A stretch of 64,000 nt of DNA from assembly GCA_963768655.1 (NCBI GenBank), contig CAVYIM010000004.1, positions 160,001-224,000 on the forward strand. Direction: 5' to 3'. Below are positions 10,170 to 41,192 of the stretch, piece by piece; positions within the stretch are counted from its first letter, which is position 1, and each line of letters opens with the position of its first letter. The stretch comes from an uncultured Chloroflexia bacterium. Lineage in GTDB: Bacteria; Chloroflexota; Limnocylindria; Limnocylindrales; CSP1-4. A model generated the notes under the pieces. The model was not told where the DNA came from. It searched no databases and saw only the letters and a list, made by a program, of their open reading frames with translations. The translations under genes and the position numbers were made by a program.

Positions 10170-10609
10170 CCAAATGCCCCTTTGGTTACCGGTTTGGCCC
10201 TGGTCGACCTTGCTCCGGTCGCGCGCCGCAGCGGACGTCCGCGCCTACCTCGTGCGCGAGCGTCCGGCAACGGCGGAACCGTTCAGCCACGACCGTCCAG
10301 AGTTTGGCCGGGGTTGCGGGATATGAAGTGGGGACGCCACTGCGCTCTTGCCGGGGCGCTCCGGGCCGGGCTTCGGTGGCAACGGACCGGAGACCGACTA
10401 TGCGGGCCGCGTGACGCGGACCTACCTGTTGCCTTGTAGCTATTCTCGGAAGCCGGGTTCGGTGCCGATAGGGCCGCATGACCCGGCCCATCGGGGGCCA
10501 ACCCGCCCGCGTTTCCCGGCCTCTTGGGGCTGGGGCAGCGGACAGCGGCACGACCCATACGGGCGGTATTGGGCTCGTTCGAGGGTGGACGGTAGGGCCG
10601 CCGGTAGAT

Positions 10610-12043: not shown

Positions 12044-12358
12044 TCTCGCCTCCGAGCCGAATGGGTCGGCCGGTGGAGATCATGACCCAGTTGCCCGGGG
12101 AGTGCCATTCGTGGGCTACCTGGACCAGTTCCCCTCATCCGGGAATTGGGCGTCCTTTCGGCAGGTGCACGGCGTGGTAGAGGCGGTGCAGGCCTCCGTC
12201 GGGCCGGCGGTCACGCTCGGCCCGACGATCAGACGCGCCACGAGCCGTGGGATCCGGCCCAAAGCCGGGCCAGACCTGGCCCTCCCACCCGGCTGGAATT
12301 GGACGACATGGCGCGAGCCGCTCGATGGGCGCCCGAACGACGGCCCGCCCTGCTCCGC

Positions 12359-14119: not shown

Positions 14120-14248
14120 GGTGGGTCTCTCCGCGGGTCTGAGCGGCTGCGTCGTCGCGGTAAGTTTAGGGCCTGAGGGATGGCGGCCGAGCGCCGGCGC
14201 AACGCGCCCCCGGTCGAGGGCGGCGGCCGGTCGGACTCCGGCGGCGCT

Positions 14249-20972: not shown

Positions 20973-21293
20973 ATTCCCGGTCGGGTGGGGCCAATCCCGG
21001 CTAGATCCTGGGCGCTCCCCTCGGCGCCCGCGCCGCTCGCCCGCCCCGGCGCCTGCCCCGGCGCGCTCCCCTCGGCCGCAGCGCCGGCCGCTATTCCAGC
21101 GCCGCCCGCAGGCGGAGCAGCGGGGCGACCGCGAGGGCCTGCGCAAGGCGCCGTTCGTGGCGTCCGCGCACCGCCTCGGGGTGCCCGGTGACGTTCGGCA
21201 CTGGCCCGCTACTGCATTTGCCTGAGACGCTTCCGCTGCGAGGCCGCCGCGCGGGGTAGCCGTGCTCTGGGCCGCGCCCGGAGGAGGCGTGAG

Positions 21294-24200
21294 GTGTTGG
21301 CGAGACGTCCCGCCCTTGCTGTAGCGGCGGCCGTGCTGCTTCTTGGTGGCCTGCCGCTTTCGGGAATCGTGCCCTCACGGGTGCTGGCAGGCGCCTCCAC
21401 GACGCCCGTTTCGCGGTCAATAGATGGGATGGAGGATTCAGGCCAGCCCTCGTCCTCGTCCACCCACGACGTTTCGCTGTCCACGCCCTGGACCGTCTTC
21501 GACACGGACGTGGACGTCGTCGGCGGGAATCTGTCCTTCGCCCAGCAGGACCTCACGATCCCCTCGATCGGCTTTGCCACCACCGTCGCCCGGACCTACA
21601 ACAGCGCGGCGGCGAACGTGAACGGACCCTTCGGCTACGGCTGGTTCTGGACCTACGGGCTCAGCGTCGCGGCGGCCTCGGGTGGCGTCGATGTGGCTCG
21701 GGCAGACGGCCGCGTCGACTTCTACGCCAGCAACTCCTCGGGCTACACGCCCCCGGCGGGCATATACGACACCCTCGCGGACACCGCGGGCGGCGGTTGG
21801 ACTCTCACCCTGGTCGACCAGATGGTCTACACCTTCGCCGCGGACGGCAGCCTCACGAGTGAGTCCGACCCCAACGGCAACACAGCCACCCTCGCCTACA
21901 CCAACGGGCTTGTCTCGAGCCTGACCGACACCGCCGGCCGGACCTGGACCTTCATCGCCGCTCCCGACGGCGTCCACGTCGGCGAAGTCGACGACCCGGC
22001 CGGACGCAAGGTCGACTACTCCTACAGCACCGCCGGCGATCTGGTCGGCGTGACCGATGCCACAGGCGCGTCCGAGACGCTCGCCTATGTGAGCCACGAT
22101 CTCACGAGCCTGACCGACGCGAACGGCAACGCGACTACCTACGTCTACAACTCGGGCGGCAGCGTCGCCTCAGTGACCGACGCCCTCTCGCACGCCACGT
22201 CCTTTGCCTACAACCCCGGTTCGCTGCGCACGACCGTCACCGATCCGCGCGGCAACAGCCACTCCTACAGCTACGATCCGACGTCGCGAGTCACCGTCCT
22301 GACCGACGCCCTGGGCGCGTCGGAGTACTGGACCTGGGACAGTTCGAACGATCGCATCTCGGTCATGGATAGGCGCGCCGACGTGACCTCGTATGCGTAC
22401 GATGCCGCGGGCAACATCACCGGCGTGACCGATGCGAACGGCGGCACCGCGAGCGCCGCCTACGACGCGGACAACCACCCGCTTTCACGCACCGATGCCC
22501 TGGGCCGGACCACCACTTACGGCTACGACGGCAACGGGAACCTGACCTCGATCACCGATCCGAACAGCGGCGTGACGGCTTACGGCTACGACAGCTACGG
22601 CGAGCGCACCTCCTCCACCGACGCCGATCACAACACGACCACCTACGGCTACGACGCGGTGGGCAACCTCACCTCGGTCAGCGATGCCCTCAGCGAAACG
22701 ACCACCTACGAGTACGACAGCGCCGGGCGGCAGACACGCATCACCGACCCTGACGGCCGCATCACGCGCTTCACCTACGACGCGCTCGGACGCGAGCTAT
22801 CGACCACGGACGGCGCGGGCGGCGTCACCAGCTGGACCTACGACGCGGTTGGCAACCGCCTGACCCAGCGCGATCCGGACGGCAACGTCACCCACTTCGC
22901 CTACGACGCCGCGAACCACCTGATCAGCACGACCGACGCCCTGGGCCATATCACTACGCTCGGCTACGACGCCAACGGCAACCGCACCTCGGCGGCCGAT
23001 CCTCTGGGCGATACCACGACCACGCAGTACGACCTCGACAACCGGGCCACCAAGGTCATCGACCCCAACAGCCACGCGACCACAACCGCCTACGACGCGG
23101 TCGGCAACCGGGCCTCGGTCACCGACGCCAACGGCCACATCACTTCGTTCACGTACGACCGACTCAACCGCCTGGTGGGCGTCACCGATCCTGCGGGCGG
23201 ACACGCCGCCTACACCTACGACGCTGTCGGGAACATGACGAACGTGACCGATCCCAACGGCCACACGACCACGACCACATATGACGTCCTGAACCGCGCG
23301 GTGTCGGAGATCGACCCGCTCACACACGTGCAGTCGAGCACGTACGACGCGGTGGGCAATCTACTGACCCAGACCGACGCCAACGGCGTCACCACCAGCT
23401 ACGCCTACGACGCGGCGAACCGGCTGCTCAGCGCGACCTACGCCGAAGGCGGGGTCAGCTACACGTACGACGGGGCGGGGGATCAGGTAAGTGTCACCGA
23501 CGCCGGAGGCACGACGAGTTACACATACGACGGCGCGCGACGGCTGCTCACCAACACGTCGAACGCCGGCACGGTGTCCGCGACCACCGTGACCTACACG
23601 TACGACGCCGCAGGCAACCTGAAGTCGCTGCAGAACCCCGACGGCACGACCACCCACTACGGCTACGACGCCGACAACCGTCAGGCCTCGGTAACCGACT
23701 CCAACGGACACGTCAGCTCGTTCGGCTACGACAACGCCGGCCGGCGCATCACCGAGGATCTGCCCAACGGCACCCATGGCGTCTGGGCCTACGACGCCGC
23801 CTCGCAGGTCACTTCGATCACCTGGACCGGCCCCGCGAGCCAGACCCTCTCCACGATCAAGTACAGCTACGACCCCGTCGGCAACAAGACCGAGATCGAC
23901 GACAACAGCGGCAAGAACGGCTTCAGCTATGACGCGCTCGACCGGCTGGTCTCGGCCTCGTACGGCGGCCGCGGCGTCAACGTCACCTACGCCTACGACC
24001 CAGCTGGCAACCGGACGTCGATGACGGTCAGCGGTATCACCACGACCTACACGTACGATGCCGCCAACCGCCTGCTCAGCGTGAACGGGAGCCAGGTCAC
24101 CTCCGACGGCAACGGGAACGTGCTGGTCCTCGGCAGCCAGAGCTTCGCCTACGACTCACGCAACCGCCTCGTGGAGGCAGTGACCGGGTCGGTGACCGAG

Positions 24201-27200
24201 CACTTCGCCTATGACGGCGCCGATCAGCGCGCGAGTACCTCGGTCAACGGCGCGGCGACCAGCTACGCCTACGACGAGCATGGCCAGCTGGCCCAGGTCG
24301 TCACCGAGTCGGGCTCGGCCGCCAGTCATGTCTATGGCCTCGATGGTCAGGTCCTTTGGGATGTCTCGAGCGACCAGGGCACGACCTACTACCAGCAGGA
24401 CGCGATGGGCTCGACGACCATGCTCACCGCGGCGGACGGCTCGGTGAGTGGAACGCGTTACTACGACGCCTTCGGCTCGCCGGTCTCGGCGCAGGTTGGT
24501 TCGGGTTCCTATTGGTATGACGGCCAGCAGTACGACGAGAACAGCGGCCTGATCTACCTCCGTGCCCGTTACTACGACGCCGCCCTCGGCCGCTTCCTCT
24601 CGCCCGACACGGCCACGCCTGACTACGCCGACACGCAGTCGCTGAACCAGTACGTCTTCGCCCAGAACAACCCTCTGCGGTTCGAGGACCCGAGCGGGAA
24701 GTTCCTGCAAGTGCTGCTGGGCGCTGCGATCGGAGCGGCAGTCGGCGCTACTGCGGACGTAGGCATGACCTTGCTCACCGATTATGTCTCCAACGGCGGG
24801 CATTTCTCCGATGACCTCGGCGCGAAGGTAGCTGGCGCGGCCGTGTCGGGCGCCATCGAGGGCGGCATCGACGTTGGCCTCGCGACGGCGACTGGCGGAG
24901 CATCCCTTGTCGCCGGTAGCCTCGGGAGCGGCGTGGCAGACGCGGCGGGTTACGCGACAACCGCGGCGCTGGACGAGTACTTCTACCACAAGCCCACTAC
25001 AACATCTGATCTAGTGACCGGCATTGCTGTGCATGGAGTCTTGGGGATGGCCGAAGGTGGCCTATCGCAGGGCATTGCCGATCGCCTCGTCCCAAATACC
25101 TCATCTGTCCTGAACTCGTTGGTGTCGGGCACGGTAAGCGGCCTGTTCGAGGGCGTCGAGGGCTATTTCGAGAACCCGACCGCCTTGGCTCCCGGTGAGC
25201 TCGCCAGCCCCGCTGGCGGACAGTGGCGCGGCTTCGGCGCGGGCGGTGGTGGCGCTGCATGGGGTAGCGGTGGCGTCAGCGGAGGCGGCGGTGCCTACGT
25301 GCCAGCCACTTTCAGTCCCACGCCGCCCACGATGCCGGAGCCGAGCGGGCCGGTTGTGCTGGTGTGCGATGGAGCCAATTTCTCGCCCAGCTGCGTCGAC
25401 CTTGCCCCCGGGGCGTACGCGGACCTGTCCGTGTTCGGGATGGACAAGCGGATCACGTCCTTCCGGGCCTCCGGCTACCAGGTCACGCTCTTCGATCAGC
25501 TCAATTTCGGGGGCAACGCCACCTACTACAGCGGCGACGTGGCCCAGCTGGCAGCTGGCCTGGACAACACGGCCCGCTCAATCCGAATTCTGCCGGTCGC
25601 CTCCGGCTCCTGGTCGCAGGTGACTCCGTCCGGTTTGATTCCTCTCGCCCGCTACGGTGGCGTCTCGGTCTGGGATCCCACCGACAAGGTCCAGCTCGTC
25701 TTCGGCGGCAATGGCTCTGGTATCGGCTTCCTCAACGACATGTGGGCCTACAGCCCGGCGGCCAGCACCTGGAGCCAGCTCCTGCCCGCCTCCGGGTCGC
25801 CGACGACGAGCTTCGGCTATTACGCCCGTGGCGCCTGGGATAGCGCCGATGGCGAGCTGCTCCTGTGGGGCAATGACTGCACCTCTACGTGCGTGAGCCA
25901 GCTCTGGAGCTTCGTGCCGAGCACCCGGATCTGGACCAAGTTGAGCCCCACCGGCACCGCGCCCGGAGCGGGCTATCCCGTCGTCTGGGATACGGTGGGC
26001 AAGCGGCTCCTCGTCGTCGACTCTTCGGGCAACGTCACCGCCTACAGCCCCACCACCAATGCCTGGGCGGCGCTCACCACCGGGACGACAAAGCCGTCGA
26101 ACAACTTGGGTGTGGCCTGGGATAGCACCGATGGGATCGTGCTCCAGTTCGGTGGCGGCAGGAGCTGCAACAATGGCAACTGCAACGATCTATGGGCCTA
26201 CTCGCCGGTCGCGGGCACCTGGACCCAGCTGACCGCGACCAACCCGCCTGGCCTGCGATCCAACGAGCAGCTCGTCTGGGACAGCGTCCACAACCAGTTG
26301 CTCGTCGTCGACGGCAGCAGCTACATCAACGGCATCTCGACCTACTACGACGACGTCTGGGCCTACAGCGTGGCCCAGAGCCGCTGGCAGCAGCTCACCG
26401 TCAGTGGCACGCATCCTGCGGCACGGTGGTATGCCGATCTAGTCTTCGATCCCACCGACGACATCGCTCTTCTCTTTGGCGGCTCCAGCTCCACGACCAG
26501 CTTCCTTGGCGATCTGTCGGCCTATCAGCCAACGGCTCTTACTCTGCCGACCGGGCCGATCTCGGGCGCTCCAAACGCCTGGAGCCCTGCTCCAACCATT
26601 ACCAGCCCTCTCGCCCGCTACGGTGGCGTCTCGGTCTGGGATCCCACCGACAAGGTCCAGCTCGTCTTCGGCGGCAATGGCTCTGGTATCGGCTTCCTCA
26701 ACGACATGTGGGCCTACAGCCCGGCGGCCAGCACCTGGAGCCAGCTCCTGCCCGCCTCCGGGTCGCCGACGACGAGCTTCGGCTATTACGCCCGTGGCGC
26801 CTGGGATAGCGCCGATGGCGAGCTGCTCCTGTGGGGCAATGACTGCACCTCTACGTGCGTGAGCCAGCTCTGGAGCTTCGTGCCGAGCACCCGGATCTGG
26901 ACCAAGTTGAGCCCCACCGGCACCGCGCCCGGAGCGGGCTATCCCGTCGTCTGGGATACGGTGGGCAAGCGGCTCCTCGTCGTCGACTCTTCGGGCAACG
27001 TCACCGCCTACAGCCCCACCACCAATGCCTGGGCGGCGCTCACCACCGGGACGACAAAGCCGTCGAACAACTTGGGTGTGGCCTGGGATAGCACCGATGG
27101 GATCGTGCTCCAGTTCGGTGGCGGCAGGAGCTGCAACAATGGCAACTGCAACGATCTATGGGCCTACTCGCCGGTCGCGGGCACCTGGACCCAGCTGACC

Positions 27201-30200
27201 GCGACCAACCCGCCTGGCCTGCGATCCAACGAGCAGCTCGTCTGGGACAGCGTCCACAACCAGTTGCTCGTCGTCGACGGCAGCAGCTACATCAACGGCA
27301 TCTCGACCTACTACGACGACGTCTGGGCCTACAGCGTGGCCCAGAGCCGCTGGCAGCAGCTCACCGTCAGTGGCACGCATCCTGCGGCACGGTGGTATGC
27401 CGATCTAGTCTTCGATCCCACCGACGACATCGCTCTTCTCTTTGGCGGCTCCAGCTCCACGACCAGCTTCCTTGGCGATCTGTCGGCCTATCAGCCAACG
27501 GCTCTTACTCTGCCGACCGGGCCGATCTCGGGCGCTCCAAACGCCTGGAGCCCTGCTCCAACCATTACCAGCCCTCTCGCCCGCTACGGTGGCGTCTCGG
27601 TCTGGGATCCCACCGACAAGGTCCAGCTCGTCTTCGGCGGCAATGGCTCTGGTATCGGCTTCCTCAACGACATGTGGGCCTACAGCCCGGCGGCCAGCAC
27701 CTGGAGCCAGCTCCTGCCCGCCTCCGGGTCGCCGACGACGAGCTTCGGCTATTACGCCCGTGGCGCCTGGGATAGCGCCGATGGCGAGCTGCTCCTGTGG
27801 GGCAATGACTGCACCTCTACGTGCGTGAGCCAGCTCTGGAGCTTCGTGCCGAGCACCCGGATCTGGACCAAGTTGAGCCCCACCGGCACCGCGCCCGGAG
27901 CGGGCTATCCCGTCGTCTGGGATACGGTGGGCAAGCGGCTCCTCGTCGTCGACTCTTCGGGCAACGTCACCGCCTACAGCCCCACCACCAATGCCTGGGC
28001 GGCGCTCACCACCGGGACGACAAAGCCGTCGAACAACTTGGGTGTGGCCTGGGATAGCACCGATGGGATCGTGCTCCAGTTCGGTGGCGGCAGGAGCTGC
28101 AACAATGGCAACTGCAACGATCTATGGGCCTACTCGCCGGTCGCGGGCACCTGGACCCAGCTGACCGCGACCAACCCGCCTGGCCTGCGATCCAACGAGC
28201 AGCTCGTCTGGGACAGCGTCCACAACCAGTTGCTCGTCGTCGACGGCAGCAGCTACATCAACGGCATCTCGACCTACTACGACGACGTCTGGGCCTACAG
28301 CGTGGCCCAGAGCCGCTGGCAGCAGCTCACCGTCAGTGGCACGCATCCTGCGGCACGGTGGTATGCCGATCTAGTCTTCGATCCCACCGACGACATCGCT
28401 CTTCTCTTTGGCGGCTCCAGCTCCACGACCAGCTTCCTTGGCGATCTGTCGGCCTATCAGCCAGTCGGCATGCCTGGAGCACCGAGCGGAGTCGTCGCCA
28501 CGCGCGGCAACACCACCGCGAGCATCTCCTGGGTGGCGCCGGTCTGGACAGGCGGGACTCCGATTACCGGCTACACGGTTACGAGCGCTCCTGCCGGCTT
28601 GACCTGCACCACCACCGGGGCGACCACCTGCACCGTCTCCGGCCTTTCCAACGGCACCTCCTACACGTTCACCGTCACGGCGACCAACCTGATGGGGACC
28701 GGTCCCGCCTCAGCGCCGTCCGCGGCAGTCATACCGGCCACACTGCCGGCCGCGCCGACGGGTGCGACCGCGCAGCGTGGGAACGCCTCCGCCCTTGTCA
28801 GCTGGACCGCGCCGTCGAGCACCGGCGGGATCCCGATCACCGGGTACACCGCTACCAGCTATCCGGGCGGGCTGACGTGCGCGACGACCGGCGCGACCTC
28901 GTGCACCGTCTCCGGCCTGACGAACGGCACTTCGTACGCGTTCACCGTCGCAGCCACCAATGACGTCGGGACTGGGCCGGCGTCGGCGGCCTCTTCGCCT
29001 GTCATTCCGGCTGCCCTGCCCGGACCTCCGACCGGAGTCGCCGCCACGAGCGGACCGACATCGGCCAGCGTGATGTGGACGGCGCCGGCGGTCACGGGCG
29101 GCAGCCCGATAACCGGCTACACCGTCACGAGCTTGCCCGGGGCAAAGACCTGCACAACGACCGGCGCGAAGACGTGCACCGTGACCGGCCTCACCAACGG
29201 CACCGCCTACACGTTCACAGTCACGGCGACGAACCTCGTGGGCACCGGCCTGCCGTCGGCGCCTTCGGCGGCCGTTACGCCGCTTGGGCCACCGGCGGCC
29301 CCGACGGGCGCTACCGCCACTCGAGGCAACGCTTCGGCCGTTGTCTTCTGGACGGCACCCAGCGACAACGGCGCGAGCCCGATTACCGGCTACACGGTGA
29401 CGAGCTCTCCGGACAGCCAGACCTGCACCTGGACGAGCGGACCGCTCTCCTGCACCGTGATGGGCCTGACCAACGGCACGGCCTACACGTTCACCGTCAC
29501 TGCAACCAACAGCGTTGGGACCGGCCCGGCTTCGAGCCCGTCCGCCGCCGTGACGCCTGCCACGACGCCCGACCCGCCCAGCGGAGTCACCGGTACCCGG
29601 GGTAACACCTCGGTGCTCGTGTCGTGGACTGCGCCGTACAGCGGCGGCAGCCCGATCACGGGGTACACCGTTACGAGCTCTCCATACTCCCAGAACTGCA
29701 CCAGTACCGGTGCCACGATGTGCACCGTGACCGGTCTGACCAACGGTCAGGCTTACACGTTCACCGTAACCGCCACCAACGCGGTTGGGACCGGGCCGGC
29801 GTCCGCCTCCTCAGATCCAGTCACACCCGCAACCCTTCCTGGCGCGCCCAGCGGAGTCATCGTCGCCCCCGCCGATGCTGCGGTTACGGCGTGGTGGACC
29901 GCCCCATCGAGCGACGGCGCGAGCCCCATCACGGGCTACACGGTCACGAGCTCGCCTGGCGGCCTGACGTGCACCACGACGGGCGACCTCACCTGCACCG
30001 TGACCGGCCTGACCAACGGTCAGCCGTACACCTTCACCGTCACGGCCACGAACGACGTCGGGGTCGGGCCTGCATCGGCAGCGTCGCTGGCGGTGACTCC
30101 CGTCACGGTCCCAGACGTCCCGACCGGCGTGGCGGCAACTCGTGGCAACGGCGAAGTCCTCGTGTCGTGGACCGCCCCGGCCGATACGGGCGGCCTGCCG

Positions 30201-33200
30201 ATCACTGGCTACGTTGCCATCTCTGATCCCGACGGAGACACGTGCTCGACGACCGGCGCCACCAGCTGCATGGTGACCGGGCTCACCAACGGCCAGGGAT
30301 ACACGTTCACTGTCCTGGCTGCCAATGACGTCGGAGTCAGCGATCCGTCGGATCCTTCCACCTCCGTGACACCCGACGCCGTGCCCGATCCACCAACAGA
30401 CGTGATCGCCACCGCCGGCGACTCGTCCGCCAGCGTCACATGGTCGGCCCCATCCGACAACGGGACCATCATCACCGCCTACACGGTCACGAGCTCGCCC
30501 GATGGCTGGACCTGCGCCACTACGGACGAGCTCACCTGCGTTGTGACCGACCTGTCCAACGGCACGGCCTACACCTTCACCGTAACCGCATCGAGTGACG
30601 CCGGGCCTGGCCTGCCATCGGCGCCTTCGGCCCCGATCACGCCGGCCGCGCTCCCCGACGCACCTACAGATGTGACTGCCGCGCCAGGCAATGGTTCAGC
30701 CCTGGTGAGCTGGACCGCACCCTCGGACAACGGCTCTCCGATCACTGGCTACACCGTGACAAGCTCGCCTGACGGCAAGACCTGCGCCTGGACAAGCGGG
30801 CCACTCTCCTGCGCCGTGACCGGCCTCACAAACGGGACCGCCTACAGCTTCACCGTAACCGCGACCAACGGTGTCGGGACGGGCTCTTCTTCTGCGGCGT
30901 CGAGCAAGGTCACTCCCGCCACTGCGCCGGGTGCACCGACGGGAGTGAGCGGTGTCCGCGGGAACGGCTCGGTTCTGGTTTCCTGGACCGCGCCGGCATC
31001 AGATGGTGGCGCCGCCATCACGCTCTACACCGTGACGTCGTCGCCGGGCTCGAAGACCTGTACCTGGGCGACGGGGTCGCTCTCCTGCACCGTCACCGGA
31101 CTCACCAACGGCACCGCCTACACCTTCACCGTGACGGCGACTAACGGCGTCGGCACCGGTCTAGCCTCGGCCGCCTCGAACAGCGTCACCCCGGCCACGG
31201 TGCCGGGGGCGCCGACTGCCGTGGCCGCCACCCGCGGAAACGCCTCGGCGGTGGTCTCCTGGACCGCGCCAGCATCGAATGGCGGCAGCGTCATCACGCT
31301 CTACACCGTGACAAGCTCGCCCGACGGCAAGACCTGTACATGGACGAGCGGGCCGCTCTCCTGCACCGTGTCCGGCCTGACCAACGGCACCGCCTACACC
31401 TTCACCGTAACCGCCACCAACGGCGTCGGTACAGGGGCCCTGTCTACCGCTTCGGCATCGGTCACTCCTGCCACGGTGCCCGGCGCTCCCACCGGCGTGA
31501 CGGCCACGCGAGGGAACGCCTCGGCTCTCGTGTCCTGGACTGCTCCAGGCTCGAATGGTGGAGTTGCCATCACCGGCTACGCCGTGACGTCCACTCCTGA
31601 CTCGAAGACGTGCACCTGGACCACCGGTGCTCTCTCCTGCACCGTGTCGGGCCTGACCAACGGCACGGCCTACACCTTCAGCGTGACCGCCACCAACAGC
31701 GTCGGGACCGGTCTGGCCTCGGCCGCCTCGAACAGCGTCACTCCGGCCACCGTGCCCGGTGCGCCCACCGCGGTCAGTGCCACCCGGGGCAACGCAGCCG
31801 CCACTGTCTCCTGGAGCGCGCCAGCCTCAACTGGCGGCAGCGCCATCACTGCCTACACCGTGACAAGCTCCACTGGGTCGAAGACCTGCACCACCGCCGG
31901 TGCCGTCAGCTGCACCGTCACCGGACTCACCAACGGCACCGCCTACACCTTCACCGTGACGGCGACTAACGGCGTCGGCACCGGCGCTGCGTCCGCCGCT
32001 TCGGCGTCGGTGACACCGGCCACCTTCCCAGGCGCTCCCACCGCCGCGACCGCGACGCGCGGCAACACGTCTGCCACCGTGTCCTGGACGGCAGGGGCGA
32101 CCAATGGCGCGGCGATCTCTGCTTATCAGGTGATCGCCAAGCCGGAGGGTGAATCCTGTACCACCACCGGTGCTCTCTCCTGTACCGTGTCGGGTCTGAC
32201 CAACGGCACCGCCTACACCTTCACCGTAACCGCCACCAACAGCGTCGGGACCGGTCTGGCCTCGGCCGCCTCGAACAGCGTCACTCCGGCCACCGTGCCT
32301 GGTGCACCGACGGCCGTCACCGTCACCCGCGGCAACGCCGCGGTGCTCGTGTCCTGGACCGCCCCGTCAGCCAACGGCAGTCCCATCACCGCCTACACGG
32401 TCACGAGCTCCACTGGCTCCAAGACCTGTACCACCACCGGTGCTCTCTCCTGCACCGTGTCCGGCCTGACCAACGGCACCGCCTACACCTTCACCGTCAA
32501 GGCCACCAACAGCGTCGGTACAGGGGCCGCGTCGGCGGCCTCCGCATCGGTGACACCCACGACCGTGCCCGGCTCACCGACGGCCGCCACGGCCGTCCGA
32601 GGCAACGCCGCGGCTGCCGTGTCCTGGACCGCCCCGTCGGTCACCGGCTCCAGCTCGATAACCGGCTACACCGTCACCAGTTCGCCTGGCTCCAAGACCT
32701 GTACCACCACCGGTGCTCTCTCCTGTACCGTGTCGGGTCTGACCAACGGCACCGCCTACACCTTCACCGTAACCGCCACCAACAGCGTCGGGACCGGTCT
32801 GGCCTCGGCCGCCTCGAACAGCGTCACTCCGGCCACCGTGCCTGGTGCACCGACGGCCGTCACCGTCACCCGCGGCAACGCCGCGGTGCTCGTGTCCTGG
32901 ACCGCCCCGTCAGCCAACGGCAGTCCCATCACCGCCTACACGGTCACGAGCTCCACTGGCTCCAAGACCTGTACCACCACCGGTGCTCTCTCCTGCACCG
33001 TGTCCGGCCTGACCAACGGCACCGCCTACACCTTCACCGTCAAGGCCACCAACAGCGTCGGTACAGGGGCCGCGTCGGCGGCCTCCGCATCGGTGACACC
33101 CACGACCGTGCCCGGCTCACCGACGGCCGCCACGGCCGTCCGAGGCAACGCCGCGGCTGCCGTGTCCTGGACCGCCCCGTCGGTCACCGGCTCCAGCTCG

Positions 33201-34289
33201 ATAACCGGCTACACCGTCACCAGTTCGCCTGGCTCCAAGACCTGTACCACCACCGGTGCTCTCTCCTGTACCGTGTCGGGTCTGACCAACGGCACGGCCT
33301 ACACCTTCACCGTAACCGCCACCAACAGCGTCGGGACCGGTCTGGCCTCGGCCGCCTCGAACAGCGTCACTCCGGCCACCGTGCCTGGTGCACCGACGGC
33401 CGTCACCGTCACCCGCGGCAACGCCGCGGTGCTCGTGTCCTGGACCGCCCCGTCAGCCAACGGCAGTCCCATCACCGCCTACACGGTCACGAGCTCCACT
33501 GGCTCCAAGACCTGTACCACCACCGGTGCTCTCTCCTGCACCGTGTCCGGCCTGACCAACGGCACCGCCTACACCTTCACCGTCAAGGCCACCAACAGCG
33601 TCGGTACAGGGGCCGCGTCGGCGGCCTCCGCATCGGTGACACCCACGACCGTGCCCGGCTCACCGACGGCCGCCACGGCCGTCCGAGGCAACGCCGCGGC
33701 TGCCGTGTCCTGGACCGCCCCGTCGGTCACCGGCTCCAGCTCGATAACCGGCTACACCGTCACCAGTTCGCCTGGCTCCAAGACCTGTACCACCACCGGT
33801 GCTCTCTCCTGTACCGTGTCGGGTCTGACCAACGGCACGGCCTACACCTTCACCGTAACCGCCACCAACAGCGTCGGGACCGGTCTGGCCTCGGCCGCCT
33901 CGAACAGCGTCACTCCGGCCACCGTGCCTGGTGCACCGACGGCCGTCACCGTCACCCGCGGCAACGCCGCGGTGCTCGTGTCCTGGACCGCCCCGTCAGC
34001 CAACGGCAGTCCCATCACCGCCTACACGGTCACGAGCTCCACTGGCTCCAAGACCTGTACCACCACCGGTGCTCTCTCCTGCACCGTGTCCGGCCTGACC
34101 AACGGCACCGCCTACACCTTCACCGTCAAGGCCACCAACGCCCTGGGCACGGGAGCCGCCTCGGCCGCATCGGCCTCGGTGACACCCACGACCGCCGCGG
34201 TCACGTCGTCTTCAGAGCTCGGAACCGGACCGGCGACCACAGACCCGGGGCAGACAGCGGGTCGCCCGCGGACGGACTCTCGGCTCTGA
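21294..34289 (+). CDS. Giant secreted RHS/YD-repeat protein with crystallin-like, Kelch-like propeller and FN3 domains (4331 aa)
   Basis: GGAGGAGG RBS and a signal-peptide-like N-terminus. DUF6531-like 'ARTYNS...GPFGYGW', many YD repeats, and RHS core '[19 protein letters not shown]...[18 protein letters not shown]' (DPSG at 24687-24698). Then a crystallin-like domain, 3 propeller repeats and 21 FN3 domains. Confidence 0.93.
25641..28463 (+). repeat. 966-bp (322-aa) direct tandem repeat, ~2.9 copies, encoding Kelch-like beta-propellers
   Basis: CCTCTCGCCCGCTACGG begins at 25641, 26607 and 27573; copies look nucleotide-identical. Blades carry Kelch-like 'FGG...NDxWAY' motifs. Confidence 0.95.
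32155..34139 (+). repeat. 543-bp (two-FN3, 181-aa) tandem repeat, ~3.7 copies
   Basis: TCACTCCGGCCACCGTG recurs at 32281, 32824, 33367 and 33910; near-identical copies. Confidence 0.93.
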
Positions 34290-34332
34290 CCCCAGGGCTG
34301 TTGGCGGTCGCCCGAGGGCTTGCGTAGGCTCG

Positions 34333-36927
34333 TCAGTCCAGCTCCAGCGACGCCCGCAGGCGGATATCGCGCGAGGAGGCACCGACCAGGATCTCGAACC
34401 GGCCGGGCTCGATTCGCCAGCCGCCGCCGGCTTCGTCCCAGTAGGCCAGATCGCGGTCCTGGAGAGCGAAGGAGACGTCGACGCTCTCGCCCGGCGCCAG
34501 GTGCACTGCCGTGAAGCCCTTCAGCTCGCGCGGCGGGCGCGGGACCGACGACTCCAGGTCGGCGACGTAGACCTGCACCACTTCCTTGCCGGGGCGGCCA
34601 CCCGCGTTGCGCAGCCGAACCTTCAGCTGGGCCGAGTCACCGGCGGGCAGGCCGTCGGCGGTGACTTCGAGCGACTCGAACTCGATGCGGGCGTAGCCCA
34701 GGCCGTGCCCGAAGCAGAACCTCGGTTCGATCCCCGCGATGTCGAAGTGGCGGTAGCCCAGGTTGACGCCCTCGGCATAGACCAGTTCCTCCCGCTCGCC
34801 CGGCATCGTGCTGAGCGCGGGATAGTCGCATTCGCGGACGGCGATCGTGAAGGGCAGCCGCCCGCCCGGCTCGGCGGCGCCGAGCAGTACGTCGGCGAGG
34901 GCGCTGCCGAATTCCTGGCCCGGCAGCCAGGCGTACAGGACGGCAGCGACTCGATCTGCCCAGGGCAGATCCATCGGGCAGCCGGCGTTGACGACGACGA
35001 CGGTCCTGCGGTTGGCCGCGGCGACGCGCTCGACGAGCTCGTTCTGGCGGCCGGGTAGCGTGACGGTCGTGCGGTCGCGGCCCTCGGATTCCCAGTGCTC
35101 GTCGTTGCCGACGACGACGATCGCCACGTCTGCCGTGGCGGCCGCGGCGGCGGCTCGCTCCAGCTGGTCCGCCGCCTGCGGAGGACGGCAGCCGATGTTG
35201 AGCTGGTACGGGGAGTGAGTCGCCGAATGAATCTCGGCTTCGATGAGCACCGGCTCGCCGGCTCGAAGCTCGAATGTGCCGCCGTCCCGGCTGCCTTCGA
35301 ACAGGGCCGTCGGGATGTCGGCCGCGGGACGGGCGTCCCAGAGGTCCGCCGCCACGACACCACCAACCTTCAGCCGCCGGCCGCCGAATCCGCGCAGCTC
35401 GATGTCGTGCGGACCGCTCTCGGACGGAGTGAGCCGGCAGGACAGGCGCACGGCGAAGTCGTCGGCCGCGATGCCGTGGGGCAGGTCGCCGAATATGTGC
35501 AGCTCGCTCGAGTCGACATGCCAGCTGGCGACAGGATCGCCGGCCGGCTCCTGGCCGTGGAAGAACTCGACCGTGAGGCCGGGCTGGCCGTGGAGGTCGC
35601 GCACGTCCATCGCGCTCAACGGCGGCAGGAACAGGTCGATGTGGCAGCCCGGTTCGTGGACTATCTCGGCTCCCGGGAGCGCGGCCCGCAGCCCCTCGAT
35701 CGGAGTCACCGTGGGCGGGGCGGCGATGTTGGCCGCACCGCCTCCCTGGGCGCACGGTTTGGAGGCGTTGGGCCCGATGACCGCCAGCTTGCGGATGCCG
35801 GCCGGAGCGAGCGGCAAGGTGCCGTCGTTGGTCAGCAGCACGAACGACTCGGCGGCGGCCCGGCGCACGAGGGCCGAAGCCGCGGCGTCGGACAGGTGCC
35901 AGGGCTGCTCGGGATCGAGCGGCGCGTTGCCGGGGCCGGAGCCGGCGAGCGGCCGCGCGCCCGCGCCCTCGGCCCGCGCGCGGGCGCCCTCGGCCCGCGC
36001 GCCCACGCGACCGGCGCCCCCCGAGGCTCCACCTCCGACCAGTGCCCCGACGCGCGCCGCGAGCAACAGTATCCGGCGTGCCTTGTCGTTCAGGACCGCT
36101 TCGCTCACCTCGCCCCGCCTGACCGCCTCGCCCAGCACCGGGCCCAAGAAGCGGGCAGGACCGGGCATCTCCAGGTCCAGTCCGGCCAGGGCTCCGGCGA
36201 CGGTGTCGTCGGCGGCGTGCCAGTCGGACATCAGCACGCCGTCCCAGCCCCACTCGCCCTTCAGAATCTCGCGGACCAGGTGATCGTGATCGACGCAGTG
36301 GACTCCGTTGACGAGGTTGTAGGCGGCCATGATCGACCACGCCCCGGCGTTCGCGGCGGCCTCGAAGGGGACCAGGTAGACCTCGCGCAAGGTCCTCTCG
36401 TCGACCCGGCAGTCGACCGAGGTGCGGTGGGTCTCGGATTCGTTGGCGACGAAGTGCTTAGGCGTGGCGGCCACTCCCGCCGACTGCATTCCCGCGACGT
36501 AGGCGGCGCCGAGCACGGCGGCCAGAACCGGATCCTCGGAGTACGCCTCGAAATCCCGGCCGCCCAGCGGTGAGCGGACGAGGTTGAGCACCGGCCCCAG
36601 CATGTAGTGGACGCCGGCCCGCTTCGCCTCGGCGCCGATCCGGGCCGCGACCTCGCGGACCAGATCCACGTCCCAGGTCGCGCCGAGGGCAGTGCCGCAC
36701 GGCGTGCACGTGGCCGTCGAACCGGCCGGGAAGGTCATGCCCCGAGCGCCGTTCGGGCCGTCCAGCGTGACCATCGGCGCGAGGCCGATCGAGGGCGCGC
36801 CGCACGGGTGCCAGGCGTCGACCCCGCCCGTCAACGCGGCCTTCTCCTTTATGCCGAGAGCCCCCAGGAGCTCTTCCAGGCGTTCGGGGCTGATCGGGCT
36901 GTCGGGAGCGGGGCGGGCGACCTGCAT
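34333..36927 (-). CDS. Beta-glucosidase, GH3 with PA14-like insertion and C-terminal FN3-like domain
   Basis: DGPNGARG, GGRDFEAYSEDP, KHFVANE, MSDW nucleophile, ESEGRDR, FGHGL, GKEVVQVY; likely start MQVARP at 36927 with GAGGA RBS. Confidence 0.92.
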   Translation of the reverse strand: MQVARPAPDSPISPERLEELLGALGIKEKAALTGGVDAWHPCGAPSIGLAPMVTLDGPNGARGMTFPAGSTATCTPCGTALGATWDVDLVREVAARIGAEAKRAGVHYMLGPVLNLVRSPLGGRDFEAYSEDPVLAAVLGAAYVAGMQSAGVAATPKHFVANESETHRTSVDCRVDERTLREVYLVPFEAAANAGAWSIMAAYNLVNGVHCVDHDHLVREILKGEWGWDGVLMSDWHAADDTVAGALAGLDLEMPGPARFLGPVLGEAVRRGEVSEAVLNDKARRILLLAARVGALVGGGASGGAGRVGARAEGARARAEGAGARPLAGSGPGNAPLDPEQPWHLSDAAASALVRRAAAESFVLLTNDGTLPLAPAGIRKLAVIGPNASKPCAQGGGAANIAAPPTVTPIEGLRAALPGAEIVHEPGCHIDLFLPPLSAMDVRDLHGQPGLTVEFFHGQEPAGDPVASWHVDSSELHIFGDLPHGIAADDFAVRLSCRLTPSESGPHDIELRGFGGRRLKVGGVVAADLWDARPAADIPTALFEGSRDGGTFELRAGEPVLIEAEIHSATHSPYQLNIGCRPPQAADQLERAAAAAATADVAIVVVGNDEHWESEGRDRTTVTLPGRQNELVERVAAANRRTVVVVNAGCPMDLPWADRVAAVLYAWLPGQEFGSALADVLLGAAEPGGRLPFTIAVRECDYPALSTMPGEREELVYAEGVNLGYRHFDIAGIEPRFCFGHGLGYARIEFESLEVTADGLPAGDSAQLKVRLRNAGGRPGKEVVQVYVADLESSVPRPPRELKGFTAVHLAPGESVDVSFALQDRDLAYWDEAGGGWRIEPGRFEILVGASSRDIRLRASLELD

Positions 36928-37063
36928 GACTTGTCCTCGTGCGGGCTCTGGCGTGGCGAAATCGTAGCCCAGCGGTGGCAGGGTGGTCGACTGGGGGTGG
37001 TCGCCGCCACGGGCGTGGCCTAACCTTGTGCGGCGTCCAGCGCAGGCAGGAAAGGGGCGGGGC

Positions 37064-37258
37064 ATGGCGACGGCGAAGAATGTACCGGGCAACGGTGGAG
37101 CTGCCGAAGATACGCCGACCGCCGACGCGGCCGCCACCGGCATCGCGGCGGGTCCCGAGGATCCGGGCGGCTGGTTCTGGGCCGTGCCGGCGGGGCTGTC
37201 GGTGCTCGGGCTGCTCTGGATGGTGCGCGGGCGCCGTCGCAGCCGCTGCCGCGGATGA
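37064..37258 (+). CDS. Small (64 aa) single-pass membrane protein, unknown function
   Basis: ATG at 37064 after AGGAAAGGGG; WFWAVPAGLSVLGLLWMV hydrophobic helix plus RGRRRSR tail; stop overlaps the next ATG (ATGA). Confidence 0.5.
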   Translation: MATAKNVPGNGGAAEDTPTADAAATGIAAGPEDPGGWFWAVPAGLSVLGLLWMVRGRRRSRCRG

Positions 37259-38259
37259 GCAACCCCGAAGCCGGCGCCGGGGCGGCCGCCGCCGAGGCAT
37301 CCGTCGCCGCCGGCTCGACAGCCGAACGCCCGACGGCCGAACAGCGGACGATCGAACACGCGACGGCCGAGAGCCCGCCAACCTCGATGCGGCCGATCGA
37401 CCGCCTGATCGACCGGCTCCGCATCTACCGCGCGCCGACCGTGCTGGGCCTCTCGGGTGTCGGCGTCGTGTTCCTTGGCTGGCTTCTCCTGGTCGTCGGA
37501 CCGGAGAAGGGGACCACGGGCTTCGATGCCTTCGCCTACTGGGCCGTCTCGCCGTGGCATCCGTATGCGACGCCGCTCGGCGATGTTGGCTCGTTCACGT
37601 ACACGCCGGCCGTGGCCCTGTTCTTCGCGCCGGTCCACAACCTCATGTTCGGCGCGTTCTACGTGCTCTGGGCCGGCTTCCTCGCGGCGAACCTCGTCTG
37701 GCTGACACGGCGCCACGCTCTCATGTGGCTGGCGTTCATCCCGGTGTCTCTCGAGCTGTACGAAGCCAACGTCCACCTGCTGCTCGCGACCGTCTGTGTG
37801 CTCGGGTTCGAGTACCCGGGCCTGTGGTCGATCGGCATTCTGACCAAGGTCACGCCGGGTATCTCACTGCTGTGGTTCGTGGTTCGCAAGGAGTGGCGGT
37901 CGCTGGCCCTCGCCCTCGGAACCACGGCCGCGATTGGCGTCGTTTCGTTCGCCATCGCCCCGAGCGCGTGGTTCGATTGGGTCACGTTCCTGACCAGCTC
38001 CAGTTCCACGGGGCCAGTCGAGAATGCCTCCTACCAGTGGTTGATTCCGCCGCTGGTCCTTCGCCTGGCGGTCGCGGCGGCCCTGATCGTCTGGGGCGCG
38101 CGGACCGATCGACGCTGGGTCGTGCCCGTAGCGACGGTGCTGGCGATGCCCGTCCTGTGGATCACCTCGCCCGCGGTCCTGGTGGCAATTCCGCGGCTGC
38201 GCCGGCTGCGCACCGCGCCGGCGCCCCAGGGCCACCTCGAATCGGCGAGCTCTGCGTAG
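37255..38259 (+). CDS. GT-C fold membrane glycosyltransferase, family 87 (DUF2029)-like
   Basis: 'GFDAFAYW...FTYTP', 'EANVHLL', 'LTKVTPG..LLWF..RKEWR', multi-TM. Confidence 0.72.
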   Translation: MSNPEAGAGAAAAEASVAAGSTAERPTAEQRTIEHATAESPPTSMRPIDRLIDRLRIYRAPTVLGLSGVGVVFLGWLLLVVGPEKGTTGFDAFAYWAVSPWHPYATPLGDVGSFTYTPAVALFFAPVHNLMFGAFYVLWAGFLAANLVWLTRRHALMWLAFIPVSLELYEANVHLLLATVCVLGFEYPGLWSIGILTKVTPGISLLWFVVRKEWRSLALALGTTAAIGVVSFAIAPSAWFDWVTFLTSSSSTGPVENASYQWLIPPLVLRLAVAAALIVWGARTDRRWVVPVATVLAMPVLWITSPAVLVAIPRLRRLRTAPAPQGHLESASSA

Positions 38260-38345
38260 CGGACCTACAATCCGACTCGCCGTCCCGCCAGAATGCCCGC
38301 CGGCCGCGCCGGGGTGGGTGCACGAATCGACAGCAGGGTAGCCAC

Positions 38346-41192
38346 ATGTTCGATCGACTCGGCCGGCTGGTGCTCAGGCTCCGGTTCGTCCTGATTGCCA
38401 TCTGGGTAGTCGGTGCGATCGCGTTCGGCGTCCTGGGCCCGTCGCTGGCGAAGGTCGGGTCGGCCGACGAAACCAGCTTCCTGCCCAAGAACGCGGATTC
38501 GCTGGCCGCCCTCAAAGTCCTTTCGGCCGCCTTCCCCAGCGACTCGGCTCCGTCGACGGCGCTGATCGTCTTCTCGCGCCAGAGCGGCCTGACCGACGCG
38601 GACCGCGCCGCCATCGAGGGCCTGAGCACGTGGTTCGGAGGCGACAGTCGTCCCGCCGGCGTCCTGCGCTACGTCACCGCTGAGGGCACGCCCAGCCTGG
38701 CCACCATGTTCCGAAGCTCCGATGGCGTGGTCGAGCTGGCCCAGGTGGATTTCGATGCGCCCTCGTTCCTGCCACGGACCAACTCCGCCGTCGACGCCAT
38801 ACGGGCTCACCTTGCCGCGCCGGGCGTGCTGCCGGCCGGGCTCGTGGCCCAGGTCAGCGGCCAGGCCGGGATCGGCCGTGACTATCTGAACGCCATCCAG
38901 CAGGGCACGAACAGCACGACCGTGGTCACGATCGTGCTCGTCGTCGTGGTGCTGCTGTTGATCTACCGCGCGCCGCTTGCGGCCCTGGTGCCGCTGGCCA
39001 CGATCGGCTGCGCCTTCCTGGTCTCGCGCGGCCTGCTCGGCTTCCTGGCCCAGGGCGGCTGGCAGCTCTCGTCCGTCCTCGACTCGTTCATCGTCGTGCT
39101 CGTCTTCGGCGTCGGCACGGACTACACGATCTTCCTGATATCGCGATTCAGAGAGGAGTTGGGCCGCAACAGCCACGACGACGCGGTCCGGGTGACCGTC
39201 AGCCGCATCGGCGCCGTCATCGCCGCGTCCGCGGCGACCGTCATCGTCGGCCTGAGCTCCATGATCGTCGCCAGCTTCGGCATGATCCAGACGACCGGCC
39301 CGGCCCTGGCCATCACGATCTTCATCACTCTGCTGGCCGGCCTGACGCTCACTCCGTCGCTGCTGGCGATCTTCGGCCGGCGGCTCTTCTGGCCGCTCCA
39401 CGAGCAGACCAGGACGGCCGCCTCGGACGAGAAGGGATTCTGGGCGGCGGTCGCCCGCCGGATCACGGACCGCCCGGGGTTGCTGGCCGCGGTCGTCCTG
39501 GTCGCGCTGGCGGCGCCGTTGCTGGCTCTGCCCCAGCTCAAGGAGAACTTCAACGTTCTCGAGGAACTGCCCGGCAACGCCGAGTCGCGCCTCGGCTTCG
39601 ACACGCTCAGCCAGCACCTGGCCGAGGGCCAGCTGATGCCGCTCAATGTGCTGGTCGAGGTGCCGGCCGGGAATCTGGCCAGCCCTGCGGACCTGGCCCG
39701 TATCGGGCAGCTGGAGCAGAAGATCGCCGCGCTGCCGGACATCCAGTCGGTCAGCAGCGTCGTCGACCCGACGGGCCAGGGCACGGTTTCTGGCGTCGTG
39801 GAGCCGGCGACCGAGCTGGCCTCCATGGCGCAAGGCTTCGCGCAGCCGCCGAGCACGAACCTCAACGTCAACCTGAGCGACGCCTCTCTGGCGTCGATCG
39901 AATCCACGGTCGCGTACGTTGGCGGGCTGGCCGGGGCCTATCCGAACGTGGCGGGCGCGACCCTGACCGCCACCGAGGCGGATCTGGCCACTCTCCAGCT
40001 GAGCATCGTGAACGGGCGCGACCAGGCCAACGCCGCCAACCAGCTCGGCGCGCTTGCCGCCCAGCTGCAGGCCGCTGCCACCTCAGCCCCGAGCGGCGAT
40101 GCTGCCAGCCAGCTGGCCCAGCTCAAGTCCTACCTGGACGAGCTCGGCGCGGCGATGCCGGCGCTGACTGCGACCGACGCGTACAAGGCCGCGGAGACCG
40201 CCATCCCGCAGGTGGCGGCGACTCGCGATGCCGGGGCCTTCATGACACTCGTGGCTGCTCTTGGCCAGATGCAGGCGTGGTTCGAGGCCCAGCCGACCGC
40301 CTTCTACTTCAGCCCCACCACGGCGACGCCCACGGCCGAACAGCTGGCCGCCCAGCAGGCTACGGCCGCAGCCCGTGCCCGCCTGCCCGGTGAGTTGAGC
40401 CAGCTCGCCGCCTCGTTCGGCGCCGGCGACCTGTACGCGCCGCCCAGCCTGACGGCGGCCTACGTCTCGGGCGCCGGGAACGTGACCCAGCTGTATGTGA
40501 CCACCACGAGCAACCCGTACGACACGGCGTCCTTCGACGCCGTTCGCTCGCTCCAGACGCTGATGGCCGGTCAGGCGTCGAGTTTCGGGCCGGGGGCCAC
40601 GACGTACGTGGGCGGCGCGACCGCCGAATACGCGGACGTCCAATCCACGATCTCGTCCGACTTCCTGCGCGTCGCCGTGATCACGATCGTGGGCATCCTG
40701 ATCGTCCTCATCCTGCTGCTGCGGGCGCTCGCGGCACCCGCATACCTGGTGCTGACGGTCCTGCTGTCGTACTCGGCCAGCCTGAGTCTCTCGGCTTTTC
40801 TGGTTCAGACCGTGTTCGGCCAGCCAGGCATCAACTACTTCATACCGCTGATGGTCTTCGTGCTGCTGGTCGCCCTGGGTTCCGACTACAACATCTTCTT
40901 GATGTCGCGGGTCCGCGAGGAGAGCGCCGTGCGGCCGCTGCGGCAGGGCATCCGCGCCGCCTCGGCTCGAACCGGCACGGTCATCACCTCGGCCGGCCTG
41001 ATCCTGGCGGGGACCTTCGGGGCGTTGATCACGTCGCCGCTGCAGCTGCTCTTCCAGGTCGGCGTGACCGTCGCCCTGGGCGTGCTGATCGACACGTTCA
41101 TCGTCCGGAGCCTGCTCGTCCCGGCCATCACCGCCTTCATCGGGGAGTGGGCCTGGTGGCCGTTCCACCGGCGGGGCGCCGGGGGAGCTTAG
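38346..41192 (+). CDS. MMPL (RND-superfamily) transporter
   Basis: Start MFDRLGRLV at 38346; two MMPL halves with FGVGTDY.IFL.SRFREE and ALGSDYNIFLMSRVREE; large helical insertion. Confidence 0.92.
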   Translation: MFDRLGRLVLRLRFVLIAIWVVGAIAFGVLGPSLAKVGSADETSFLPKNADSLAALKVLSAAFPSDSAPSTALIVFSRQSGLTDADRAAIEGLSTWFGGDSRPAGVLRYVTAEGTPSLATMFRSSDGVVELAQVDFDAPSFLPRTNSAVDAIRAHLAAPGVLPAGLVAQVSGQAGIGRDYLNAIQQGTNSTTVVTIVLVVVVLLLIYRAPLAALVPLATIGCAFLVSRGLLGFLAQGGWQLSSVLDSFIVVLVFGVGTDYTIFLISRFREELGRNSHDDAVRVTVSRIGAVIAASAATVIVGLSSMIVASFGMIQTTGPALAITIFITLLAGLTLTPSLLAIFGRRLFWPLHEQTRTAASDEKGFWAAVARRITDRPGLLAAVVLVALAAPLLALPQLKENFNVLEELPGNAESRLGFDTLSQHLAEGQLMPLNVLVEVPAGNLASPADLARIGQLEQKIAALPDIQSVSSVVDPTGQGTVSGVVEPATELASMAQGFAQPPSTNLNVNLSDASLASIESTVAYVGGLAGAYPNVAGATLTATEADLATLQLSIVNGRDQANAANQLGALAAQLQAAATSAPSGDAASQLAQLKSYLDELGAAMPALTATDAYKAAETAIPQVAATRDAGAFMTLVAALGQMQAWFEAQPTAFYFSPTTATPTAEQLAAQQATAAARARLPGELSQLAASFGAGDLYAPPSLTAAYVSGAGNVTQLYVTTTSNPYDTASFDAVRSLQTLMAGQASSFGPGATTYVGGATAEYADVQSTISSDFLRVAVITIVGILIVLILLLRALAAPAYLVLTVLLSYSASLSLSAFLVQTVFGQPGINYFIPLMVFVLLVALGSDYNIFLMSRVREESAVRPLRQGIRAASARTGTVITSAGLILAGTFGALITSPLQLLFQVGVTVALGVLIDTFIVRSLLVPAITAFIGEWAWWPFHRRGAGGA

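Follow-up and report, generated by a model that had tools for sequence, protein, structure and literature searches.

The window analysed here is a 64,000-nt stretch of contig CAVYIM010000004.1 from an uncultured Chloroflexia bacterium. Its positions 21294–34289 on the plus strand form a single unbroken open reading frame (ORF) of 4331 codons, which encodes a giant Rhs protein of 434 kDa. In this protein, an Rhs shell and its autoprotease core are followed by 3196 more in-frame residues after G1135, arranged as a hydrophobic glycine-zipper module, a linker, a β/γ-crystallin domain, three Kelch propellers and 21 FN3 domains. This layout is real and rare. By sequence, the protein belongs to a small clade in which a cargo-sized glycine-zipper module takes the place of the enzyme toxin after the core. 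Concerning its topology, we see about an even chance that the chain passes out of the shell as in mosquito SGS1 and the teneurins, and that the protein acts as a lectin-guided membrane-insertion device.

The ORF starts with GTG, contains no internal stops and is preceded by a strong ribosome-binding site, GGAGGAGG, read directly off the sequence at 21280–21287 (+), 6 nt 5′ of the start. The GC content at third codon positions (GC3), calculated in blocks of 300 codons, stays at 0.79–0.91 along the whole ORF, and the neighbouring genes have values of 0.81–0.90. The uniform GC3 indicates that the frame is coding throughout, without a compositional seam.

Shell and autoprotease core

The YD-repeat shell (21717–24461, +; residues ~142–1056) contains 21 RHS_repeat stretches in Pfam and 17 YD_repeat_2x. 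It is joined by the Rhs-associated core (24462–24701, +), matched by NCBIfam TIGR03696 at residues 1057–1135 with 69.7 bits (cut-off 32.5). AlphaFold, using a 41-sequence alignment, predicted a confident shell for residues 150–1135, with a predicted local distance difference test (pLDDT) value of ~90. In a Foldseek search with the predicted shell, the cocoons of type VI secretion system (T6SS) Rhs proteins ranked first (8qja, E 1.9e-64; 7pq5, template-modelling (TM) score 0.65/0.73), followed by a bacterial teneurin-like protein (TLP), the teneurins, TcB–TcC and SGS1. In both size and fold, the prediction corresponds to the T6SS Rhs cocoons, which comprise ~1000 residues and enclose a cavity of ~32,000–35,000 cubic angstroms with a cargo of 15–16 kDa (PMC10684867). 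Pfam detected 15 families on the whole protein, none of them NHL or FN-plug, and the Teneurin YD-shell model scored 16.1 bits, below its cut-off of 50.

The core terminates in PLRFEDPSG, which begins at residue 1127 and places DPSG at 1132–1135 (D1132, G1135). The 41-sequence alignment shows no variation at R1092, D1105 or G1135 and hardly any at D1132, and both catalytic Asp residues align with those of the solved Rhs protein 8h8a. Moreover, the spacing of 13 residues from R to D equals that in the autoprotease triad R2103/D2116/D2140 of the Bacillus TLP (PMC13018210). Judged by its residues R1092/D1105/D1132, the aspartyl autoprotease is complete, and by analogy with solved homologues self-cleavage is expected after K1136 (PMC13018210).

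At the N-terminal side, residues 1–34 (21294–21395, +) resemble a signal peptide, with an RR pair, a hydrophobic core (mean hydropathy 1.84) and AGA-S, as recognised by eye and by hydropathy. Between this segment and the shell, residues 73–141 (21510–21716, +) match DUF6531 (Pfam PF20148, E 2.6e-11), the usual N-terminal element of this Rhs subfamily.

The chain behind the cut site

The hydrophobic glycine-zipper module (24702–25193, +; residues 1137–1300) starts one residue past the expected cut. It has a mass of 15.8 kDa, an isoelectric point of 4.05 and no Cys, and contains 11 overlapping small-xxx-G-xxx-small matches, including GAAIGAAVG. Residues 1137–1160 reach a 19-residue Kyte–Doolittle mean of 1.66, resembling a transmembrane segment, and are followed by three weaker hydrophobic segments that score ≤1.25 and contain Asp and Glu. 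The module has no match in Pfam or NCBIfam and matches no toxin family. In a protein atlas built on a language model, its look-alikes are unnamed clusters at 0.90–0.91, where recognition is under the reliable level. PT-TG and DUF637 scored at lead level in the atlas (0.82–0.83) and were not confirmed by Pfam. AlphaFold of the tail head alone, with a 3-sequence alignment, yielded pLDDT values below 50, with a mean of 31.6.

Many other Rhs tails of the DUF6531 subfamily (P0151, P0153, P0158, P0166, P0190, P0195 and others) also open with a Gly/Ala-rich hydrophobic helix right after DPxG. A membrane-type cargo head may be common, and little noted, in this subfamily.

The module is connected to the domains behind it by a linker of ~45 residues (25194–25340, +; residues 1301–1349), which is Gly-rich and then Pro/Thr-rich and holds GGAYVP at residues 1332–1337 (25287–25304). 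The β/γ-crystallin domain follows at 25341–25613 (+; residues ~1350–1440) and contains two Cys. The Pfam family Crystall gives a weak 19.3 bits when the whole protein is scanned, but passes its cut-off of 25 bits when a 100-residue piece is scanned alone (32.7 bits, E 8e-8). Next, six Pfam Kelch stretches make up three β-propellers of 322 residues each (25638–28463, +), encoded by a 966-nt unit that is 100% identical at the DNA level and present in ~2.9 copies (25641–28463). The 21 FN3 domains, recognised as 21 Pfam fn3 stretches, extend over 28464–34193 (+), the terminal copies showing 100% DNA identity in a two-domain unit of 543 nt (32754–34139). The identical 966-nt and 543-nt repeats point to a very recent expansion or conversion. 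Each FN3 domain has two Cys (42 in all), which fits extracytoplasmic domains; in the whole outside part there are 56 Cys past the cut, against none in the module. The protein ends with a polar C-terminal tail of 31 residues and the stop codon (34194–34289, +).

In total, the part behind the cut amounts to 3195 residues and 314.7 kDa. Because solved shells of similar size hold 15–16 kDa, this tail cannot fit into the shell, whereas the 15.8-kDa module is itself cargo-sized.

A first-pass annotation of this DNA had anticipated much of the above. The ORF, the YD shell, PLRFEDPSG with D1132 and ~3200 residues after it were all confirmed by the ORF, Pfam and TIGR03696. The domain scan recovered the crystallin, the three Kelch units and the 21 FN3 domains that it had listed, and hydropathy agrees with its signal-peptide-like start and its Gly-rich hydrophobic segment. 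Its argument that the part after DPSG could not be packed whole into the cocoon agrees with the masses given here. It was also right that the C-terminus carries no LPXTG (last 31 residues, by eye) and that SLH is missing (no such family in the Pfam scan), but its statement that there is no transmembrane segment does not hold for the transmembrane-like residues 1137–1160. Finally, it had described a convergent neighbour 44 bp away that leaves no space for an immunity gene; the convergent gene and the lack of space stand, and the gap measures 43 nt.

Relatives, integrity and rarity of the layout

The nearest shells among the 120 proteins listed are those of P0146 (55% identity) and P0227 (51%); P0006 shares 38%. 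In all three the order is the same, proceeding from DP(S/T)G through a hydrophobic Gly/Ala-rich stretch to GGAY(V/I)P and then to crystallin or other β-sandwich domains. The GGAY(V/I)P motif, found as GGARVP in P0006, is located at residue 1270 of P0146, 883 of P0227 and 377 of P0006, and in four of four clade members it sits 184–197 residues past the G of DPxG, with low identity in between. This near-constant distance suggests a length constraint on the segment, and GGAY(V/I)P may mark where the chain exits or is processed. P0146 and P0227 have the same type of tail head, which is unswapped between these nearest shells in a clade sample of four members. Of 142 library hits at E ≤ 0.001, the majority are confined to the crystallin part.

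P0227 is encoded in a locus (L024) on a contig titled uncultured Chloroflexi bacterium and ends at an in-frame TGA. Past this single TGA, the frame goes on for ~880 residues, comprising further β-sandwich domains, then a lectin domain of the Laminin_G_3 family and one Kelch propeller. As translated, the locus shows a second lineage with the order of Rhs core, hydrophobic stretch, β domains, lectin and Kelch. The same locus has an ORF of 130 residues on the same strand (14054–14446), lying 34 nt past the LamG/Kelch frame and looking genuine and soluble. It may encode an accessory or an immunity-like protein.

The junction between core and module was compared with records of related proteins. 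P0003, a 404-residue protein from a different contig of 13,361 nt, is 96% identical over tail residues 1–240. The match runs from the DPSG junction across module and linker into the crystallin, and the residues before it continue back into the Rhs core. The last 79 residues of P0003 are the exact +1 frame of window positions 25381–25617, showing that its DNA is collinear with the window to ~25620 and differs by indels only, although its assembly may not be independent of that of the window. The crystallin reads correctly in the frame of the window, and P0146 and P0006 keep the core/module junction at 38–55% identity. On these comparisons we regard the gene as real and single, and not as a chimera.

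The length of the tail sets this protein apart from other Rhs proteins. A loose-motif tail scan of 122 sequences left 8 unmatched, and the 35 longest apparent tails showed YD-repeat context with no core end. The remaining 79 rows contained ~73 true core ends, judged from context, with tails of 55–422 residues, the longest three being P0146, P0150 and P0227. For nine of the 35 unresolved proteins, including a 3845-residue Myxococcus protein, the core was sought with TIGR03696, giving eight tails of 135–356 residues and one protein without a core match. In addition, eight giant core-bearing frames of 2930–3811 residues from the genus and the phylum all end ~240–545 residues past the core (hand arithmetic). 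Other Rhs proteins with a placed core have tails of 135–545 residues throughout, against 3196 here.

A word-indexed search of proteins of 2382–7580 residues returned one hit each for the junction and for crystallin plus Kelch; neither hit has the layout, and in neither does the Kelch unit occur together with RHS. The whole protein is absent from a collection of 5.8 billion proteins, and none of 50 further genomes from the genus has the crystallin plus Kelch part. Among relatives, 18 of 61 genomes match, those other than the source genome with the core plus no more than ~120 residues beyond it. In the phylum, 131 of 401 genomes match, and among the 150 matches listed (147 more exist) the whole tail head occurs only in the source genome and G125; the tally includes G296, G218, G410 and G339 (flagged unpublished) merely as genomes without a full-length match. 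A scan of genome contigs confirmed 259 of 301 stretches, from which 75 loci were kept. The frame behind the core was translated in five of these (L024, L025, L026, L028 and L030), and by translation and match extent (query residues 1–275) only L024 belongs to the clade. A scan of metagenome loci with the tail produced 268 pattern matches, 0 of them confirmed. No bacterial protein of such layout was found described in the literature searched, which did not cover subscription journals and supplements, and the C-terminal tables for TLPs in PMC13018210 may hold long ones. These results uphold the first-pass annotation in calling the layout unusual, as the architecture was not found to be common in the searches run. 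Its term "undescribed system" was overstated, since SGS1 provides a solved precedent (PMC9935623) and the teneurins also pass the chain out. Passage of the chain out of the shell, one of the readings that it raised, is also the one that we favour.

At the locus, the stop codons of the Rhs ORF and of a convergent GH3 glycosidase ORF (34333–37776) are separated by the 43 nt at 34290–34332, which contain neither a terminator-like site nor an ORF and offer no space for an immunity gene; none adjoins the Rhs ORF. The upstream neighbour is a divergent aconitase-family gene. The sole upstream ORF, of 105 residues, is Arg/Pro-rich and non-coding in appearance. The examined flanks also include an MMPL gene. 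Taken at their longest, the frames of the GH3/PA14 glycosidase (34333–37776, −) and the MMPL transporter (36939–41192, +) overlap by ~840 nt. Their Pfam matches begin late, GH3 at residue 352 and the best MMPL stretch at 514, so that at least one true start of the pair is probably internal. An Rfam scan of the window gave 0 matches.

The host is a soil or sediment bacterium. Its genome (9 contigs, 88.6% complete) has no match to Omp85 and one sortase-family match. The envelope is likely single-membrane, as in monoderm Chloroflexota, because Omp85 is unmatched and the phylum label is common to G125, which is taken as the Chloroflexi genome with L024.

Topology and comparison with known systems

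In the pass-through topology, the shell would fold around residues ~1137–1300, with the aspartyl protease cutting after K1136 and the module held inside. The flexible linker would pass the shell wall, placing the crystallin, three Kelch and 21 FN3 domains (~295 kDa) outside, where this lectin-like array would attach to the glycans of a target surface. Until the array is bound, the membrane-active helices would be kept soluble by the shell; on release into the membrane, they would form either a pore, as Tse5-CT does, or an inserted anchor. Sec export in a monoderm host would put the protein directly outside.

Several observations weigh against this arrangement. Transmembrane-like hydropathy is confined to residues 1137–1160, and the remainder of the module has 15 acidic residues. 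The module gave 0 hits at E ≤ 10 against PDB sequences and has no detectable relation to SGS1 or Tse5, and AlphaFold with the 41-sequence alignment assigned residues 1136–1349 a pLDDT below 50 (mean ~25), with short helices. A self-toxic pore-former should have an immunity gene, and none adjoins. The exact repeat copy numbers are taken solely from the assembly. In the read data, a single run reached 17% of the sampled words; of three runs aligned, one gave two near-identical contigs with 148 and 265 nt aligned and the other two gave short partial matches, and none of these bridges the junction. In addition, the L024 copy, the sole relative with Kelch, is disrupted, its region 6985–14020 being in three pieces with a frameshift near 8099–8124 toward the 5′ end and the in-frame TGA at 11369–11371. 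P0227 exists as three near-identical protein records (1089/1090 identical) with the same internal start and the same TGA end, which indicates that the breaks are probably real, and this copy may be a pseudogene or in need of recoding.

No immunity gene would be needed if the protein were a teneurin-like surface or matrix adhesin that is neither toxic nor active on membranes, in which the hydrophobic stretch would be an internal linker holding the shell. The tail type shared by the nearest shells, not swapped as in polymorphic toxins, and the outside part made entirely of lectin-like or spacer domains agree with such a role, and the teneurin YD shell can serve adhesion (PMC5851990 and PMC13018210). 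However, we consider it unlikely: all three autoprotease residues are kept, whereas mammalian teneurins are without DPxG (PMC13018210), the post-cut stretch is a cargo-sized glycine zipper, and a cell anchor is visible at neither end. Another reading is an adhesin held in the membrane of its own producer, with the hydrophobic segments as stop-transfer and re-insertion helices that would provide the missing anchor for the outside Kelch/FN3 array, and with the shell cut and shed. Residues 1137–1160 (1.66) with the three weaker segments after them could supply such helices, LPXTG and SLH were not found, and the C-terminal array is Cys-rich as if outside. This seems quite unlikely to us given that the first helix lies one residue past a cut site that is intra-shell in solved Rhs proteins, that the other segments stay at ≤1.25 with Asp and Glu, that the mass of the module is that of a shell cargo, and that the predicted transmembrane helices of SGS1 proved to be buried in its shell (PMC9935623, in part).

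An artefact or dead fusion, in which misassembly or a recent deletion joined two genes or the number of repeats was inflated, is highly improbable. The uniform GC3 at the junction, the collinear P0003, the junction kept in P0146 and P0006 and the crystallin in frame all speak against it. In its favour are the 88.6%-complete assembly in 9 contigs, the 100% identical repeats, the absence from the 5.8-billion-protein collection and the disrupted L024.

Building on the pass-through topology, we tentatively put forward a more specific proposal, to which we assign a rather low probability. Here the cocoon would be a detachable cap that chaperones a membrane module covalently tied to a ~295-kDa lectin/FN3 array, making the clade a bacterial pass-through prototype with a working autoprotease. 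After glycan binding, the module would leave the shell and insert into the target membrane. Such a secreted protein would act as an adhesin that inserts itself or as a lectin-guided pore-former, and could do without a secretion needle, a producer anchor or an immunity gene. Rhs cocoons are understood as containers of small enzyme toxins, with the targeting parts ahead of the shell. So far, exit of the chain is known from teneurins and the SGS proteins of mosquitoes alone, two groups believed to descend from bacterial genes. If the pass-through topology is true, chain exit from the shell would occur in bacteria too, and a free-living bacterial model of this topology would be at hand. It would also imply a needle-free delivery logic, with a lectin array outside and a capped membrane module inside.

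Among known systems, Tse5 of the P. aeruginosa T6SS (8cp6) resembles the window protein in its ~1000-residue shell, its enclosed 16-kDa hydrophobic post-cut fragment, which is pore-forming, and its membrane delivery (PMC10684867; fold E 2.2e-58). It differs in being T6SS-delivered, having a PAAR-type N-terminus and ending after the toxin, and the two modules are without sequence similarity. Tse5 also has an immunity gene. Classical Rhs/WapA toxins share the YD shell, the Rhs core and DPxG, and a cognate immunity gene normally follows their tail. Their small tails vary between close shells, whereas the clade described here shares its tail type. The window protein departs from an Rhs polymorphic toxin in having a tail too large for the shell, no immunity gene directly downstream and, among the four clade members, a tail-head type that does not vary between the two nearest shells.

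The same genome contains a classical Rhs array (C4:322000–345000), with six core matches within ~22 kb and the appearance of an orphan-tip array. Five of its six translated frames read DPDGH and then differing short tails, and the sixth is without DPxG. One further Rhs frame, on C7:54994–57897, has a small hydrophobic tail after DPTGT, bringing the additional core matches genome-wide to seven.

The Tc toxin component TcB–TcC shares the shell fold and the autoprotease. Its cargo leaves via the TcA channel, in contrast to being kept on a long outside chain. A Tc BC component was rejected, as only DUF6531 precedes the YD repeats, TcB chains alone give a TM score of ~0.1, and the flanks examined hold aconitase-family, GH3 and MMPL genes; no genome-wide search for TcA was made.

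Teneurins and bacterial TLPs (6fb3, 9ifo; Foldseek ranks 13–29) share the YD shell, and metazoan teneurins have a C-terminal part outside it. The FN-plug and NHL elements are absent from the window protein by Pfam. Mammalian teneurins are without the DPxG motif (PMC13018210), whereas in the window protein the catalytic residues are all present. Bacterial TLPs leave the cell by Sec and undergo self-cleavage at DPxG. Unlike the window protein, they carry their adhesion domains N-terminally and have a C-terminal domain of ~15 kDa (PMC13018210).

The closest likeness is found in mosquito SGS1 (PMC9935623). SGS1 has the three catalytic residues, and the ~230 residues after its cut, once predicted to span the membrane, form a daisy chain of helices inside the shell. 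From there the chain exits through a mid-opening common to teneurins, with a further domain outside. The window protein likewise keeps the autoprotease residues, has a hydrophobic stretch right after the cut (164–197 residues, compared with ~230 in SGS1), continues the chain and bears lectin-type domains on the same polypeptide (PMC9935623, in part). The two Rhs cores align by sequence and the shells by fold (Foldseek rank 42), and the post-core parts are without sequence similarity. SGS1 differs in being eukaryotic, with receptor domains at the N-terminus or in the shell region and a shell enlarged by a propeller. Its outside C-terminal part (Tox-SGS) comprises ~320 residues, versus ~3000 in the window protein. 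Compared with these systems, two things look new: that the layout occurs in a clade of bacteria, and how large the outside part is.

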